Source: Sedimentisphaerales bacterium (lineage in GTDB: Bacteria > Planctomycetota > Phycisphaerae > Sedimentisphaerales > SM23-30). From it: DNA of 64,000 nucleotides. Location: assembly GCA_963663965.2 (NCBI GenBank), contig CAXXFK010000033.1, forward strand, positions 1 through 64,000, in the 5' to 3' direction. Made by a program: the position numbers and the translations under genes. Below the pieces are notes generated by a model that did no database searches, had not been told where the DNA came from, and worked only from the letters and a program-made list of their open reading frames with translations. This document shows positions 39,592-45,720 of this stretch, in pieces (position 1 is the first letter of the stretch; the number at the start of each line of letters is the position of its first letter).

Positions 39592-40920
39592 TTATGTCTT
39601 ATTGGAAGCTGATTTGTTCTTTGGGGGTAATTCTATAACCCTGTCCGTTGTTAATAAAATTGCGAATCTTGTAACTAATAGCCCAAGTAAAATATATCCA
39701 AGCAAAACCTGAGTTACTATACATACATGCCCCATTATTTTATCTTCTACGGCGTCAATGTCGCCATAACCTAGAGTGGTCATTGTTACAATGGAAAAAT
39801 AGATAGCCCTACAAATATTGCAAATATGGTTTGTGGATTTATATTTTTTAAGAACTGGCAAGTTAGGACATTTAGGAGTAACGGGGTCTTTAAGTGTAAA
39901 TAAATTATTAACAATTCCTAAGTTCTCCTGGTAATATCCACCATTATTAAAATATTCGTTGTATCCGAAAAATAAGTAAATTATTGCAAAGAAGATTGCA
40001 ATTAAAATAAATGAACAAATCGTTCTTTTTGTTGAATATCCATAGTCGGAGCACCACCAAAATAGATTTACCAAGCATCGGCGTATTGGATGTCTTTTAT
40101 ACCAATCTTGCCAGTTATATTTTCGAATTATATATCTTAATTGTTCCTTAACCCTAACATCCGCTTTTGGTATGTTTATATCAAAATTTGAACATTTTAA
40201 TTCCCTATCGAACTTGATATGACAAAGATTTGTTTCATCATCGATATATATATCATTGATGTTCGCGCCATAAAACTCTGCACTATGTAAATTTGCTTTA
40301 TCTAAATAGGCATTCGATAATATTGCCCCATTCAAATTCGCACCAACTAGCTTAGCTCCCGTGAGAATTGCTTCAGTTAAATCAGCTATCTCAAGATTCG
40401 CTCGACTTAAAATAGCCCCTTTAAGTTCTGTGCCTTTGAGAACAGCACCTTTAAGACAAGCGTTCCCTAGTTTTACATCATTGAATTCTGCATAGCATAG
40501 TTTTGCATTTTCAAGCTTAGCATTTTTAAGGATCAGTGTCGCATTACCTTTTGCCCTTGATAAATCTGCCATATGTAAATATGCATTTTCTAGATTAGCA
40601 TTCTTTAAATCAGTGTCAGTAAGATTGCATTCTTCTAAATGAATTATATCCTTACTGTTATTTCGCCATTTATTCCATGCAGAATGCTTATTCTTGTCTT
40701 CAATATTCTTAGAATAATATTCACTCAGTAGCAGAAGAGTAAGTTGCCAATAATCACCTTTGAAGTTTGATTGTTTTTCGCCATAACTTTCGATAATTTT
40801 TGAGTGAACATCTTCTGATATTATATTAGAAAAATATGACGAAAATGTATTTATGACTTTTTCATCTTTTGAGGAATATGGCTCATCAGATTTATTGTAT
40901 ACATTATTAAAATCAATCAT
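39592..40920 (-). CDS. Pentapeptide-repeat protein fused to a 2-TM potassium-channel-like pore
   Basis: A(N/D)LxxA.L repeats; SDYGYS; YFSIVTMTTLGYGD selectivity-filter motif; low GC. Confidence 0.88.
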   Translation of the reverse strand: MIDFNNVYNKSDEPYSSKDEKVINTFSSYFSNIISEDVHSKIIESYGEKQSNFKGDYWQLTLLLLSEYYSKNIEDKNKHSAWNKWRNNSKDIIHLEECNLTDTDLKNANLENAYLHMADLSRAKGNATLILKNAKLENAKLCYAEFNDVKLGNACLKGAVLKGTELKGAILSRANLEIADLTEAILTGAKLVGANLNGAILSNAYLDKANLHSAEFYGANINDIYIDDETNLCHIKFDRELKCSNFDINIPKADVRVKEQLRYIIRKYNWQDWYKRHPIRRCLVNLFWWCSDYGYSTKRTICSFILIAIFFAIIYLFFGYNEYFNNGGYYQENLGIVNNLFTLKDPVTPKCPNLPVLKKYKSTNHICNICRAIYFSIVTMTTLGYGDIDAVEDKIMGHVCIVTQVLLGYILLGLLVTRFAILLTTDRVIELPPKNKSASNKT

Positions 40921-40945
40921 TTAATCTATTTTTACCAATAATATA

Positions 40946-42931
40946 TTACCTAATATTTATATTATCAATCCAAACACAATCAGAACCAGAGGTTCCAGAA
41001 CTGTCTTTCATGTATACCCACATTAAAGACTGTATGCCGTCTCCTAAATTAAATTCAACATCACCCCAATTTTGTTCGCCAGACCAATAACCTTTGAGGC
41101 TCCCGTCAATAAAAAACAATAAATTATCACTGTTTATTTCACATGATGTTTTCCTTGCAAATGACACTGTGTTGTAATTATCAGTACAAACAATTAATTC
41201 TAACGAGCAAGATTGACTATCAGATATATTTCCTGATTTAAGACAATATATACCATCATTAGGATATTCCCTTACAACAAACCAAAGTTTTTCACCTTCA
41301 GTAATCCACATATTGGTTGAATTGCTAAGATTTGAATACTCAAAACTGTCATATATAGGAAAATTTAATAGCCAATTATTCGACAAAATGTCAAAGTCAT
41401 TAAAATCAATATTAATTCCTTCAATCAAATTAAAATCAGGGTTTTCTAATAACCAACTCTCGGCTATATTACTCAACTCAATGATATTTACTATTCCATC
41501 ATTGTTCATGTCTGGAAAAACATCATTGTCGATTATATTAGCAATTATTTTTCGCGAAGCTATTCCATTGCCTTTAAATTCTAAGTTAACAACACTGTTT
41601 TTACAATCATTATCTTCAATTGCATAGACATGAATAATTTGTGGTATTTCAAAATTGTCGGGAGTAAATGTTATTAAATTGGGTTCAAGAGCTAAACTTA
41701 CGTCATTATAATCAATATTGATTTTAGACAATACCAATGGTTGCTTTGCTAATGAAATATTAATTTTTTGTGTTCCTCCTTCGACAATATCAAAAGCATC
41801 ATTATCAGAAATAATATTTATTGGTTCCCAAGTTAGCCAAGGATAACCCTTACCATTCGAAATATTCCAAATATCATCGTTGCCATTAATTCCTTCATTA
41901 ATGAAATCCCACCCTGATAATTGATAAGTTAAAATGTTATACATTTCAACCGTTGTTTTACCTTTGCCCCCTACACTAACAGATATCATTGAAGTTTCTA
42001 TGTCCCAAAAACTGTTCTCAATAATATGATTATAACTATGTCCACACAAGCCTCCATGATGAGATCCACCATTTACTTGACCAGCCGAAAAAGAATTTTT
42101 TATATGGCTTGAATAATTATAACCACATAAACCTCCCACATAATCCCCGGTTCCAGAAACAGTGGCGATTGCATAACAGTTAGAAATAAGACCTTTATTT
42201 TTTCCGCAAAGCCCACCGAGTTTTCCTCCTCCAGTTACACTTCCTAATGCATAGCAAAATACGATATACCCATCATCGTTTGAGCCACACAATCCCCCAA
42301 TATGGGCAATTCCTGAAAGAATGAAATCTGCACTTGAATTTGATATATTACCTGTATTGTATCCACATAAACCTCCAATATATTCAGAATAATCGCCAAT
42401 TGCTTTAATTGTCCCTTTGGCAGAACAATTAGAAATCAATCCATTTTCATTTTCGCCGCACAAACTGCCAAGCTTGAATGAGTAACCATTTCCGCTGATT
42501 GCTACATTATTTAATGTGAGGTTAGAAACAACAGCATTATTTCCATTGATCTTTCCAAATAATGCCAAAAAATCATTTTCTTCAGCAATTATATTCAAAT
42601 TAAATATTGTATAATAATTCCCGTCAAAAACTCCTGAAAAAGGGAACCCATTATATCCATCCCAATTAGAATTATTATTATCTCTGGCAATTACGGCATC
42701 ATTGTAAGTTCGTCCAATTAGATCAATATTACACATCAGTTTTGTGTGAACATTTTCTTCCCACAATGATGCATTTTCCGCAAATTCATCAAAGTCATTT
42801 ATATCTTCAATCAAATATGGATAATCATCCGAACCATCTGTAAGTGGCTCAGTAACTCGTCCCATATCTCCATTTACACAAAAAGCCAAACTGCATAAGA
42901 AACATACAATCAAAAAAATTCGCCTAACCAT
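40946..42931 (-). CDS. Secreted GLUG-repeat protein with a dockerin-like segment
   Basis: Signal peptide; GS.DYPYLI, FSGVFDGN, repeated (I/V)GGLCGxN, SFWDIETS, DMNNDGIVNI..L...WL; low GC. Confidence 0.85.
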   Translation of the reverse strand: MVRRIFLIVCFLCSLAFCVNGDMGRVTEPLTDGSDDYPYLIEDINDFDEFAENASLWEENVHTKLMCNIDLIGRTYNDAVIARDNNNSNWDGYNGFPFSGVFDGNYYTIFNLNIIAEENDFLALFGKINGNNAVVSNLTLNNVAISGNGYSFKLGSLCGENENGLISNCSAKGTIKAIGDYSEYIGGLCGYNTGNISNSSADFILSGIAHIGGLCGSNDDGYIVFCYALGSVTGGGKLGGLCGKNKGLISNCYAIATVSGTGDYVGGLCGYNYSSHIKNSFSAGQVNGGSHHGGLCGHSYNHIIENSFWDIETSMISVSVGGKGKTTVEMYNILTYQLSGWDFINEGINGNDDIWNISNGKGYPWLTWEPINIISDNDAFDIVEGGTQKINISLAKQPLVLSKINIDYNDVSLALEPNLITFTPDNFEIPQIIHVYAIEDNDCKNSVVNLEFKGNGIASRKIIANIIDNDVFPDMNNDGIVNIIELSNIAESWLLENPDFNLIEGINIDFNDFDILSNNWLLNFPIYDSFEYSNLSNSTNMWITEGEKLWFVVREYPNDGIYCLKSGNISDSQSCSLELIVCTDNYNTVSFARKTSCEINSDNLLFFIDGSLKGYWSGEQNWGDVEFNLGDGIQSLMWVYMKDSSGTSGSDCVWIDNINIR

Positions 42932-43253
42932 AATAATATAGACTCCATACTCAAAATTTAAATGAATTAAGAATCTTAAAATCTATTTATCCCTACAACA
43001 TTATTTACTAATTTAAATAGTAGCATATTACATGAATGTATGTCAATAGTTTTTTATAATGGGTATCTTTGTTTTAAGGTCTTTATAAAACACAGTGTAT
43101 ATTATTTTGTTGACAACTCCTAAAATCAACATAAATCTCTAGATGATAAACCATTAAGAATAAACCAGCCGAATTTTTCCCTGAAACTAATCTGTCATAA
43201 AAACATAAATGGGAAAATATTATGTTAAATACAATAAAAACAAAATATTTAAT

Positions 43254-43282
43254 TTGATTTTAATTGCAACACGGTCTATAAT
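43254..43282 (+). promoter_or_regulatory. Putative sigma70 promoter facing the repeat array
   Basis: TTGATT-17 bp-TATAAT with an A/T-rich upstream tract. Confidence 0.65.
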
Positions 43283-43339
43283 CCCAAAGTCGACCCAATA
43301 GCCCTTAAACATCCCGCCTGAACCAGGCGTGCCCCGCCC

Positions 43340-44760
43340 CAACCGTCCACGCCCGCAGAGACATTCTGCGCATAAACTGTGCCACCATCAAGCTTAGCTT
43401 ATGGGTGTATGCATGGCCCAGTGCTATCTGATGCGAACCAGACCCAACCAGCCAATTTATTTTGGCTGTTAATAAGTTACGAATGAAATGGAAACCAACA
43501 AAAACAACACAACCCGGCAACCCAACCATAAAAGGCTTAAAAACGTAGCATGGGCTTCCAGCCCATGTCTATTGTTCTCCATAGATAATGGGCAACCCCC
43601 GGTTGCCCATGCCGCAGGTCCGCCGTGGCGGGCTGGTCTAACCACCATGAGCGCAGCGAATACCAACAAAAAACGAAACGAACCCAATGACAAAAAAAAT
43701 GATCATAACAATATCAATATCAAACACTTATATCGATATGGGTGCCACCTTCAAGCGCAGCTTGTGGGTGGATTCGTCGCCTTGTGAACTCCAATGTGAA
43801 TTGAGCTTATCGACAATAAAAACAACATCCGCCTCAAGGCGGATTCAAATAATATCTCGAAGAGATCAAAAGCGCATAGCCCGCCAATTCATTGGCGGGA
43901 ATACCCGAACCCGAAACGTATATTTTTTAACCCACGCCTCGCAGAGGCGTACCGCCAGGATTTCGCACCGGAGGCGAAAGATAACGTAGCATGGGCAACC
44001 CCCGGTTGCCCATGCTGGTCTAATTAACATGAGCGCAGCGAATACCAACATAAAACGAAACGAACCCAACATAAAAAAATATCGCCCTAACCTGAGCAAT
44101 AACAGGAGGATAACGAGTCCCCTGGGTGCCCCCTTCAAGCGCAGCTTATGGGTGGATTCGTCGCCTTGTGAACTCCAATGTGAACTGAGCTTATCAACAA
44201 TAAAAACAACATCCGCCTCAAGGCGGATTCAAATAATATCTCGAAGAGATCAAAAGCGCATAGCCCGCCAATTCATTGGCGGGAATACCCGAACCCGAAA
44301 CGTATATTTTTTAAACCACGCCTCGTAGAGGCGTACCGGCAGGATTTCGCACCGGAGGCGAAAGATAAAACCAACCATGAGCATAGCGAATACCAACAGA
44401 AAACGAAACGAACCCAACGATAAAAATAATAACCCTAACCTCAACAAAGAATTGAGCTTATCCATAATAAAAAACATCATCCGCCTCAAGGCGGATACAA
44501 ATAATATCTCGGAGAGATCAAATGTAAATAGCCCCCCAATTCATTGGGGGGGATAGACGAACCAACGTTTAAAAAATTAAACCCACGCCTCGTAGAGGCG
44601 CTACCGCCAGGATATCTCGCATAAGAGATAGGTAAAACAACATGAGCGCAGCGAATACCGAAACGAAACGAACCCAATATGAAAAAATATCACTCTAACC
44701 CCAACATAAAAATGAACTTAACCAAAATAAAATCATCCGCCTTGGGGCGAATACCACAAT
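43340..44760 (+). repeat. Tandem array of 260-380-bp hairpin-rich units, each with CATGAGC(G/A)(C/T)AGCGAATACC...AAACGAAACGAACCCAA
   Basis: 17-mer at 43671, 44053, 44401 and 44661; 43740-43983 nearly identical to 44124-44367; degenerate remnants at 43340-43530. Confidence 0.95.
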
Positions 44761-44810
44761 TTTGCATTTTAAATTCTAAATTTTAAATTTCTAAAACAGG
44801 AGGTACCACA

Positions 44811-45650
44811 ATGTCATCGTCACTAAGAAGACTACGCGCCAACCGTCGCAACGCCCAGAAATCCACCGGCCCAAAAACCCCCGAAGGCAAGGCCATCTCA
44901 TCCAAAAACGCCATCAAACACGGCCTCAGCGGCCAGGACCCCGCCCATCTCATTGTTCCCGGCGAGTCCGAACTCACCTACCTCGAATTCCGCGCCGCAC
45001 TGCTGCAAGATCTCAAACCAACGACTTATCTCCAGCGCCACATCGCCGACCAGATCGTCTCGGCCGCCTGGCGTCTCGAACGACTCGGCCGCATCGAAGC
45101 CGAAATGGTCGACGCCCGCGTCTACCAACTCCGGCTCACCAACGAAGAAATCCGCAAAGACACCGTCATCGACCAGCCCTTCGCCCATTCGAGTATCTAT
45201 CTCCCACGTCACAACGAGGTTGGCACTGCCTTCACCCTCGAAGTCCCCGCCTTCAACTGCCTGGCCCGCTACGAAGCTCACCTCAATCGTACCTTCCAGG
45301 CCAATCTTAAGCTCCTCCAGCAACTTCAATTAGAACAAAAACCAAACGAACCCAACACCTACCCCCCGGAGTACCCATTTCCCGGCCTGCCCCGCGTCCA
45401 CATACCCGACCCGCCCAAAATCCCCACGCACCCCAGCGAAGCCAAACTCGCCCCCGAATATATCAAAGACCGCCTGCCCGAAATGGAAAACGACCACAGC
45501 ATAACTGATGAACAGGTCTTCAGTTACGTCTGTAACCGCTTCGAAGCCCTCACCGATTTCGCCAACCAGAACGGCGAAGAAGCCCTCCACGCCCTCGGCA
45601 TCCCCACCAAACCCCCGGCCGATATCCCCATCAAGGAGGATAAGAAATAA
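44811..45650 (+). CDS. Uncharacterised protein with N-terminal RRLRANRRNAQKSTGPKTPEGK..S.KNA.KHGL and an internal KPNEPN
   Basis: 279 aa; AGGAGG RBS; AAWRLERL..IE and LARYEAHLNR helices; STGP.TPEG..KHG resembles HGGxSTG-like proteins but lacks the Cys/His knuckle. Confidence 0.8.
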   Translation: MSSSLRRLRANRRNAQKSTGPKTPEGKAISSKNAIKHGLSGQDPAHLIVPGESELTYLEFRAALLQDLKPTTYLQRHIADQIVSAAWRLERLGRIEAEMVDARVYQLRLTNEEIRKDTVIDQPFAHSSIYLPRHNEVGTAFTLEVPAFNCLARYEAHLNRTFQANLKLLQQLQLEQKPNEPNTYPPEYPFPGLPRVHIPDPPKIPTHPSEAKLAPEYIKDRLPEMENDHSITDEQVFSYVCNRFEALTDFANQNGEEALHALGIPTKPPADIPIKEDKK

Positions 45651-45687
45651 GGTAACCTCAGCCACCACAGATTGTTGAACAGGCCGG

Positions 45688-45720
45688 GCGAATTGATCCG
45701 CAAAGTCAATTCGCGCACCC
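45688..45720. repeat. REP-like hairpin between convergent genes
   Basis: GCGAATTGA-9 nt-TCAATTCGC. Confidence 0.5.

Follow-up and report, generated by a model that had tools for sequence, protein, structure and literature searches.

A multicopy gene and its cognate DNA word in a Sedimentisphaerales genome: a possible terminase-like site-pairing module

A dispersed element and its copies

The window analyzed here, a stretch of 64,000 nt from a Sedimentisphaerales bacterium (contig CAXXFK010000033.1), contains an element formed by a promoter, a leader, four repeat units and a gene, designated gene A (44811–45650, plus strand, as are all the features of the element described below), whose 279-aa product has an N-terminal motif, a helical hairpin and a variable Pro-rich tail. 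The units and the gene share a short word, first noticed as the 17-mer AAACGAAACGAACCCAA. A tblastn search of the genome with its own 279-aa protein gave 27 matches, corresponding to 26 full-length, intact copies, spread over 19 contigs and with 91–95 % amino-acid identity to the window copy, and to a single 3′ fragment starting with the word. The 26 copies, with nucleotide identities among them of 88.9–96.1 %, are under purifying selection (pN/pS of 0.08 for residues 1–176 and of 0.18 for the tail). They are also mosaic and recombine at a very fine scale: the four-gamete test was violated in 67–83 % of the biallelic site pairs at every distance, with 319 of 474 violated for pairs under 50 nt. 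Unlike the copies of gene A, three insertion sequence (IS) families from the same genome are 99–99.9 % identical.

Every copy sits behind the same type of promoter and leader and behind one to four units; within 1.4 kb upstream, nine copies have one unit, nine have two, seven have three and only the window copy has four. For 44 of 48 units, the best match belongs to a different array. An earlier note on this DNA, made from the sequence alone, had proposed that array and gene form one self-amplifying element or ribonucleoprotein system, and the first half of this proposal is sustained in that there is one multicopy element with 26 copies, but not the ribonucleoprotein. Nor is the upstream array a defining part, as the note had assumed, because upstream sites occur only in this lineage and most relatives have the site at the 3′ end only. 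The note had also allowed for the array being an assembly artifact. Neither a single read nor a single contig spans the array, whose exact unit order therefore depends on the assembly, and exact-match pieces of contigs cover 43092–43461, 43495–43766 and 44493–44780. The existence of many copies, in turn, is confirmed by a summed depth of ca. 110–155 over the 5′ half of gene A versus 3–5 in the flanks, as calculated from contigs of two runs of one sample that may themselves be the source of the assembly. Joints in the contigs of both runs are explained by other copies of the element.

The element is wider than first noted, starting ca. 175 nt earlier (ca. 43078) and ending ca. 70 nt past the stop codon. 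Its 5′ boundary (43078–43115) consists of GGTCTTTATAAAACACAGTG leading into the word ACACAGTGTATATTATTTTGTTGACA, similar to repetitive extragenic palindromes (REP), and is followed, in an AT-rich region, by a 25-bp TAA-N19-TTA box (43132–43156). The promoter that the note had placed ahead of the array was found as a sigma70-type TTGATT-17-TATAAT sequence (43254–43282), whose -10 region is present upstream of 23 of the 26 copies and whose -35 is TTGACA or near variants. The conserved leader (43283–43645) contains insertions of GTAG-tagged REP-like hairpins at 43545–43568 and 43588–43612. Unit 1 (43646–44027) comprises a CATGAGC core, the word (43671–43687), a box (43706–43730) and hairpins, its stretch 43739–43984 being 97 % identical to 44123–44368. 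Unit 2 (44028–44375) contains the word (44053–44069), a variant box (44088–44112) and hairpins, and its RNA fold (z of -3.2) was better than those of 100 out of 100 shuffles. Unit 3 (44376–44640) has the same organization, with the word at 44401–44417 and the box at 44436–44460, and unit 4 (44641–44795) has the word (44661–44677), a box (44696–44720), one hairpin and heptamer-like AT repeats. The ribosome binding site of gene A, ACAGGAGG, is at 44796–44803. The in-gene copy of the word (45339–45355) is located immediately past the end of the conserved domain and has no box after it. A loosely conserved 3′ tail (45651–45718) includes a hairpin (45690–45712) and ends near GCGCAC, with the homology among copies fading there.

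The variant box of unit 2 includes AACAGGAGG (44101–44109), which the earlier note had equated with the ribosome binding site of the gene. The sequence is indeed present, but it is probably no ribosome binding site, because it falls within the second of the two arms of that box and aligns with the AACAAAGGA/AAAAGGAA-type arms of other boxes. Of 16 terminator-like matches, 15 lay on the minus strand, which probably reflects the richness of the sense strand in A. Directly upstream of the element there are two low-GC genes (39592–42931), for a GLUG-repeat protein and a pentapeptide-repeat/ion-channel protein, that were probably acquired.

The arrays are sometimes interrupted, within units, the leader or the 5′ end, by IS110, ISL3 and IS66 elements (C3:48.6–50.1 kb, C36:6.2–7.6 kb, C28:397.7–398.9 kb, C19:93.9–95.4 kb), two IS110 copies being inserted at the identical position of a unit. 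A reading of the units as integron cassette sites was discarded, since the interruptions are these IS. No inverted copy of the 5′ end was found within 1.5 kb downstream of the 26 genes, except for two loose matches, and no target duplication was visible by eye at the copies.

Two further multicopy families were observed. Family B, a gene for a 261-aa product found in ca. 14 places (e.g., L014:2196–2981, or C13:103695–104480) and for which we found no homologs outside this genome, sits behind the same type of promoter, has two copies of the word in the 3′ half and is followed by the same units; its copies are mosaic and 82–98 % identical, and one of them ends in the 3′ tail of gene A (C15:155408). 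A HUH-Y1 family is present at L308 and six other places, with recombining copies 96–99.6 % identical that start with TACACAGTG..TTGACA. On its own, the word TACACAGTG is also found ahead of many housekeeping genes, perhaps as a REP or as a site for a regulator. Additionally, a 1.3-kb non-coding, repeat-rich segment is 99 % identical in three places and is inserted in Y1 genes (C11:18600–19907, C30:158142–159449).

The word as a DNA site and the product of gene A

The four exact 17-mers (43671, 44053, 44401 and 44661), their spacings of 382, 348 and 260 bp, the preceding CATGAGC..AGCGAATACC and the 16/17 copy within the gene (45339–45355) were all found again, with five matches to AAACGAAACGAACCCAA versus 0.22 expected from shuffles. 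The conserved word is not the 17-mer but the 12-mer AAAC[AG]AA[CG]CCAA, the genome having 10 exact copies of the former and 258 of the latter; AAACGAACCCAA occurs 136 times, and permuted words at most nine. Outside the A and B elements there are 122 of the 258 sites, of which 105 are intergenic.

In 72 of 96 homologous loci, which include several per genome and are not independent, the core AAC[AG]AA[CG]CC was found at 300–1300 nt from the start of the gene, versus 4/83, 2/70, 4/62 and 3/59 control windows. The site is in the sense orientation in 45 loci, inverted in 25 and in both orientations in two. Within open reading frames (ORFs) of the homologs the word appears in all three frames (24, 7 and 5 cases), and it is often situated past the stop. 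As judged from its sequence context, AAACRAASCCAA is a DNA signal tied to gene family A, and the earlier suggestion of a nucleic-acid signal rather than a peptide agrees with its frequency in the 72 loci and in the controls. The argument then given for it, an ATG that shares the NEPN frame in units 1 to 3 but not in unit 4, was correct as an observation; by itself it does not sustain the suggestion, since 58 of 70 units are in frame, as the distance from ATG to the word is fixed at 30 nt. We rejected a peptide reading of the units because their variation shows no codon periodicity (0.107, 0.102 and 0.101 for the three positions) and their ORFs span 7–133 codons. Also as anticipated, the NEPN codons do not vary freely at synonymous sites, CCA-AAC-GAA-CCC under the word being invariant in 25–26 of the 26 copies. 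The spurious small ORFs and several protein tails (NEPN, KQSQF, TKPI, GFV) are thereby explained as translations of one DNA site. A dif/Xer reading of TTATGTTAAAT and TGCGCA was dropped because the spacing does not fit.

The 25-bp TAA-N19-TTA box is positioned 18 nt past the word in 71 of 136 element sites and in 19 of 122 solo sites, as compared to 2.5 % of shuffles at any position, and in homologous loci the distance from word to box peaks at 23–24 nt (17 of 132 sites). The box resembles two IHF sites placed head to head.

Three of the eight relatives carrying A have 32–130 sites and the other five 0–3, and none of the 32 relatives lacking it has more than 10. Furthermore, 14 genomes of one family hold a single-copy homolog devoid of the N-terminal motif, a domesticated form of A, and none of nine fetched had a site within 1.3 kb; a copy with the complete motif in one of those genomes has a site 60 nt from its ATG. 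This co-occurrence suggests that protein A may act on, and bind, the word. Seven of the nine fetched loci of the motif-less homolog adjoin a fatty-acid-synthesis cluster (L298–L304, L306, L307).

Family A is among the largest unannotated bacterial protein families, with 36,006 representatives retrieved at E 1e-10 by a profile of 120 homologs. The named records among the best 80 loci are from Acidobacteriota, Planctomycetota, Alphaproteobacteria, Actinomycetota and Verrucomicrobiota. The gene is present in 8 of 40 relatives of this genome and there are matches in 22 of the 251 genomes of a phylum sample, whereas four Acidobacteriota genomes have 49–89 profile matches each, which are matches and not exact copy numbers like the 26 counted here. 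Two of three copies queried in Acidobacteriota are at orthologous places in genomes 88–95 % alike, indicating old copies rather than fresh transpositions. For the third, only the downstream flank was found, beside unrelated DNA, and in one of the two orthologously placed copies the upstream flank diverges among three genomes from ca. 130 nt before the ATG; none of the three had a clean empty site in the related genomes.

Searches of protein A against Pfam (E 1), NCBIfam (the single protein and 120 members), PHROGs and, by sequence, PDB did not identify any family. The PHROGs search with the window protein and four homologs at E 0.5 returned only one match of unassigned function (E 0.27), and Foldseek searches against PDB and BFVD gave no fold match, including no fold of a terminase small subunit (TerS). 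These negatives cover the TerS families listed in the searched libraries, and the fold searches were dominated by residues 70–183, with the N-terminal part barely probed. The best hit with VIA-align (Z 7.4) reflected generic helical hairpins only, and the ESM Atlas contained unnamed Acidobacteriota clusters at 0.94. A separate search for PF06074 was uninformative, since it matched nowhere, the controls included. The closest named proteins are those with an HGGxSTG domain (NF041373), which share the STGP-T-EG..N..KHG stretch at an E of only 0.45, but A lacks their Cys/His zinc-binding part and scores 10.3 bits against a cut-off of 29. No classical IS transposase domain (DDE, IS110, IS200/605, IS91) was found in A with Pfam, NCBIfam or PDB, in line with the absence of transposase, integrase or reverse transcriptase motifs reported in the earlier note.

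The structure model of A is all-helical, with no strands (pLDDT 75), and consists of helices 3–16 and 24–37, flanking an STGP loop, and a long hairpin (73–176). The N-terminal motif ANRRNAQKSTGP(K/R)T-EGK-N-KHG spans residues 10–39. Among 356 sequences, N14, P21 and N33 are conserved in ca. 100 %, W87 in 99 %, R91 in 98 %, H37 in 97 % and Y154 in 95 %. A four-copy model of residues 1–182 scored 0.73, versus 0.00 for the best control (the oligomer mark is reached by 20 of 30 solved homo-pairs and by 1 of 23 single chains; contact agreement of runs at least 60 %, pLDDT at least 64). Each modeled subunit uses two different faces in front-to-back contacts, with R91 and Y154 in the interface and residues 1–41 outside, and side-by-side packing is therefore predicted for protein A, perhaps in the form of a ring or an arc. 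The N-terminal 43–50 columns align with proteins from viral contigs encoded directly upstream of ca. 600-aa genes, at loci that were found by the motif itself; three of seven of these large genes match the terminase large subunit (TerL) and two of six of the upstream proteins match TerS families.

A single-copy TerL-like gene (L013:1707–3176, or C30:122206–123675) occurs in 33 of 41 related genomes with no portal or capsid genes nearby, and is possibly a domesticated terminase. In this genome it is directly behind a family B element, whereas in relatives it follows its own small gene. It is usually preceded by an acetyltransferase-like or ParB-like gene together with a 140-aa helical gene. None of the 26 copies of A is next to it, although one partial A match is near a TerL-like gene in an Acidobacteriota genome (L197, in G041). 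Linkage to TerL was thus discarded as a defining feature of A, since TerL is mostly found without A in relatives and with its own small upstream gene. In addition, Acidobacteriota genomes (G041, G043, G044) each contain several dispersed, short TerL-ATPase-like genes (L188, L191, L194, L195, L197), apart from their TerL-portal clusters (L189, L193).

Strand bias around gene A and possible readings of the element

GC skew varies along the genome in a patchwork of domains. With the elements themselves left out of the measurement, the sense strand is rich in C 2–27 kb upstream of 19 of the 20 scorable copies of A and 5–30 kb downstream of 10 of the 20 (Wilcoxon p 1e-4), whereas 86 % of random sites that are C-rich upstream remain so downstream. 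Family B is C-rich on both sides (10/11 upstream, 9/11 downstream), as are the Y1 genes and the solo sites, and the one-sided pattern is found only at A. The upstream bias is not an effect of transcription, because genes of both strands show it (0.28 and 0.16). In the window, the C-rich island of the plus strand (20000–52000) peaks 5–15 kb upstream of gene A, is gone by ca. 25–30 kb and flips to G-rich at ca. 50–52 kb. The polarity is the same, but weaker, in two Acidobacteriota genomes (upstream 9/10 and 8/10, downstream 5/10 in both). A property of the element genes themselves, C-rich third positions, was considered and rejected, as these follow the regional skew.

Copies of A coincide with origin-type strand-bias switches: seven of 11 such switches are at 0.6–10.3 kb from the start of a gene A and an eighth at 16 kb, all on the downstream side, and the regions within 12 kb of a copy make up 8.6 % of the genome (binomial p of ca. 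1e-5, calculated by hand). All seven terminus-type switches are more than 19 kb away from any A or B gene. Conversely, a clear C-to-G switch is seen at 7 of the 20 scorable copies. The genome has two dnaA genes, one of them, on contig C22, off any detected switch and the other on a contig too short for the scan. Richness in G marks the strand exposed as single-stranded DNA. If this applies here, synthesis would start near the 3′ end of gene A and run upstream, and we infer that the skew is caused by the element.

The reading that we tentatively favor, while granting it less than an even chance, is that of a selfish terminase-like module, in which an oligomer binds and pairs its own sites and triggers polar, recombination-dependent synthesis by host enzymes. 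Protein A would oligomerize side by side via its helical hairpin into a ring or arc, with the free N-terminal motif binding AAACRAASCCAA beside the 25-bp box, which would be bendable, at the 3′ end of gene A itself, in the upstream units and at the ca. 120 gene-less sites. Lacking a recognizable catalytic center, it would most likely pair two sites and pass them to cutting and recombination enzymes of the host. Synthesis might then begin at or just downstream of gene A and proceed upstream through it, which would copy the gene with its promoter to new places, shuffle alleles and units among copies, and leave the antisense strand G-rich for 25–40 kb upstream. The starting points of this proposal are the observed copy number, selection, mosaicism, site-gene association and polar skew, to which it would add binding, the ring, pairing and the cutting enzyme; the homologs without motif and without site, along with the complete-motif copy that does have one, serve as a natural control in its favor. 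T4 gp16 is described as binding within the 3′ end of its own gene, at a site that recombines and gives rise to amplifications (PMC10893049), and TerS proteins as having a DNA-binding N-terminus, a helical-hairpin ring and a flexible tail, with the pac site in the gene (PMC9611059).

Several observations weigh against this proposal. The word is missing from 24 of the 96 loci, which are not independent, and five of the eight relatives with A have next to no sites. No clean empty site was found in three attempts, the orthologous placement makes the copies old rather than freshly transposed, and the mosaicism is possibly inflated by assembly through repeats. The alignment to terminase-position proteins, from loci found by the same motif, stops at 43–50 columns; no TerS fold was matched, and the model has helix 3–16, a loop and helix 24–37, with no clear helix-turn-helix in this N-terminal part. 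There is a single HU/IHF-family gene in this genome, and a classical IHF heterodimer thus cannot bind the box. As for the skew, the elements were left unmasked when the 11 origin-type and seven terminus-type switch points were located; in G041 the skew follows the gene although the site has the opposite orientation to it; and the complete genome of a relative without A, G004, changes skew sign repeatedly (20 sampled windows, G004:C1, L218–L237). Patchwork skew as such therefore needs no A, and we discarded it as a proof of many origins.

Of the alternatives, the one that survives best, although unlikely, is that A is a true replication initiator, and that the ring, direct repeats, bending box and AT-rich DNA constitute iteron-like extra origins, active in every ordinary cell cycle and firing in the upstream direction at least. 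It would account for the presence of seven of 11 origin-type and none of seven terminus-type switches within ca. 10 kb of a copy, for a skew that peaks at the element and decays with distance, for a dnaA gene away from any detected switch and for nearly all copies being intact and kept at orthologous sites. Solibacter usitatus presumably carries family A. A 'lack of strand bias' is reported for this organism (PMC3174227), which would also fit initiation by A. Half of the copies, however, have no switch, the effect is small in Acidobacteriota, patchwork skew also occurs in the relative without A, two dnaA genes are present and A has no winged-helix or AAA+ initiator fold.

The element would, with still lower probability, be a non-autonomous passenger of the HUH-Y1 (RAYT-like) enzymes of the genome, moving via single-stranded intermediates, with lagging-strand targeting and 3′-end rearrangements producing the skew and with A having another, host-level role. 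The REP-like word ACACAGTGTATATTATTTTGTTGACA at its 5′ end is also ahead of seven of the eight Y1 genes of this genome, whose copies likewise lose homology at the gene end, and of many unrelated genes; family B and the Y1 genes are C-rich and mosaic too, and Y1 enzymes use the lagging-strand template (PMC6006769). But B, the Y1 genes and the solo sites are C-rich on both sides, with one-sidedness only at A, the skew is a gradient rather than a step, Acidobacteriota copies have 5′ ends different from those of this genome, and the tracking of the site with the N-terminal motif is left unexplained. Even so, the REP-like word common to the element and seven of the eight Y1 genes makes it possible that Y1 enzymes define the 5′ boundary, and they may help to move the element in this genome.

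We consider it improbable that A is a working TerS and its sites pac, with a host or prophage TerL driving headful packaging and chromosomal transfer by lateral transduction or a gene transfer agent. The shared N-terminal motif and predicted architecture, the TerL-like gene conserved in relatives and here directly behind a family B element, and skew islands of a headful size (25–40 kb) are compatible with this function, as is the pac site within the TerS gene of P22 (PMC9611059). Conversely, TerL occurs without A in most relatives, with its own small upstream gene and with the site in none of 13 relatives' loci; A was absent from the phage collection; full-length viral matches of A are not next to TerL; and neither the PF04860 portal nor the PF05065 capsid family, the two for which we looked, was matched in G000, G030, G041 and G044.

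More doubtful still is that A is a new nicking enzyme, with Tyr154 as candidate nucleophile and rolling-circle synthesis from the 3′ site in an IS91/ISCR geometry. The conservation of Tyr154 (95 %), for which Phe is not among the top alternatives, that of W87, R91, H37 and N33 (97–100 %), and a skew polarity that fits displacement of the antisense strand point to it, but Tyr154 and Arg91 are part of the predicted interface between subunits and also persist in the single-copy homologs that have no site, there is no HUH or recombinase fold, and the site is inverted in 25 loci. Finally, an RNA repeat array forming a ribonucleoprotein with A is highly improbable, in spite of the strong promoter, the leader and the hairpins, with unit 2 folding better than its shuffles, because the site is oriented against the gene in 25 of 96 loci and lies mostly after or inside the gene and not in an upstream array, the hairpins, short and REP-like, are inserted sequences that vary from unit to unit, the rigid spacing of word and box suits double-stranded DNA, and there is no Rfam match at gathering level (best E 0.1).

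Implications and comparison with known systems

A large unannotated family can thus be assigned a DNA site of its own, the architecture of an element and a footprint on the scale of the genome, and its gene has spread to 26–89 places and remains intact, with no known mobility enzyme. An extended proposal, which we regard as unlikely, is that a mobile, terminase-derived initiator provides chromosomes with dozens of extra, DnaA-independent and polar replication starts. If so, bacterial chromosomes with many origins would exist naturally in Planctomycetota and Acidobacteriota with tens of copies, and the family, of ca. 36,000 clusters, would represent a novel type of chromosomal element that replicates itself. 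Two questions become testable now: whether many natural chromosomal origins exist in bacteria, and why some large Acidobacteriota and Planctomycetota genomes show no clean two-replichore skew. We found no description of the element or the family in the open-licence literature, subscription journals being outside the search.

The element resembles several known systems. Phage TerS proteins with a pac site in their own gene (T4 gp16 and P22 gp3; PMC10893049, PMC9611059) are like A in their side-by-side helical-hairpin core, which is predicted for A, in their variable C-terminal tail and in their cognate site at the 3′ end; the N-terminal motif is shared with phage proteins in terminase position, and the site-linked recombination and amplification of T4 can be likened to those proposed for A. 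The site is in, or at the 3′ end of, the gene itself in the 72 loci counted above, as far as sequence matches tell. Unlike phage TerS, A is a stand-alone protein with dozens of chromosomal copies under their own promoter and more than 100 gene-less sites, has no adjacent TerL, portal or capsid and no clear helix-turn-helix in its N-terminal part, and does not match past ca. 50 residues.

RAYT/TnpA-REP systems (PMC6006769) similarly have a gene beside its cognate short repeat and many dispersed intergenic repeats in the genomes carrying the gene, as well as divergent intragenomic copies in some subclasses. The repeat of A likewise adjoins its gene and is scattered elsewhere, with 122 of the 258 sites located outside elements and 105 of these being intergenic, and all site-rich relatives carry A. 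Nevertheless, A is all-helical and lacks a HUH motif, with no Pfam match to the Y1 domain PF01797 at E 1 although the separate Y1 genes of the genome do match it; its repeat is an asymmetric 12-mer plus a 25-bp box and not a GTAG-tagged hairpin, and the site lies inside or after the gene.

IS91 and ISCR are rolling-circle elements with their origin downstream of the gene and read-through into upstream DNA. The element shares with them an apparent lack of inverted-repeat ends and of a visible target duplication, the 3′-end site and the upstream polarity, but A has no HUH or tyrosine-recombinase-like domain, and its copies, far from identical, are old, mosaic and 89–96 % alike. Iteron plasmid origins and mobile archaeal orc/cdc6 origins have direct repeats, AT-rich DNA, a bending-type box, an adjacent gene for an oligomeric protein and an origin-type skew switch, all of which are found or predicted in the element, whose strand-bias switches coincide with copies to the extent given above (seven of 11 within ca. 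10 kb, elements unmasked). In contrast to these origins, A lacks a Rep winged-helix or AAA+ fold, is chromosomal and present in many copies, and initiation is only a candidate role for it. The module would work partly like TerS-pac and partly like RAYT-REP, and is a member of neither.

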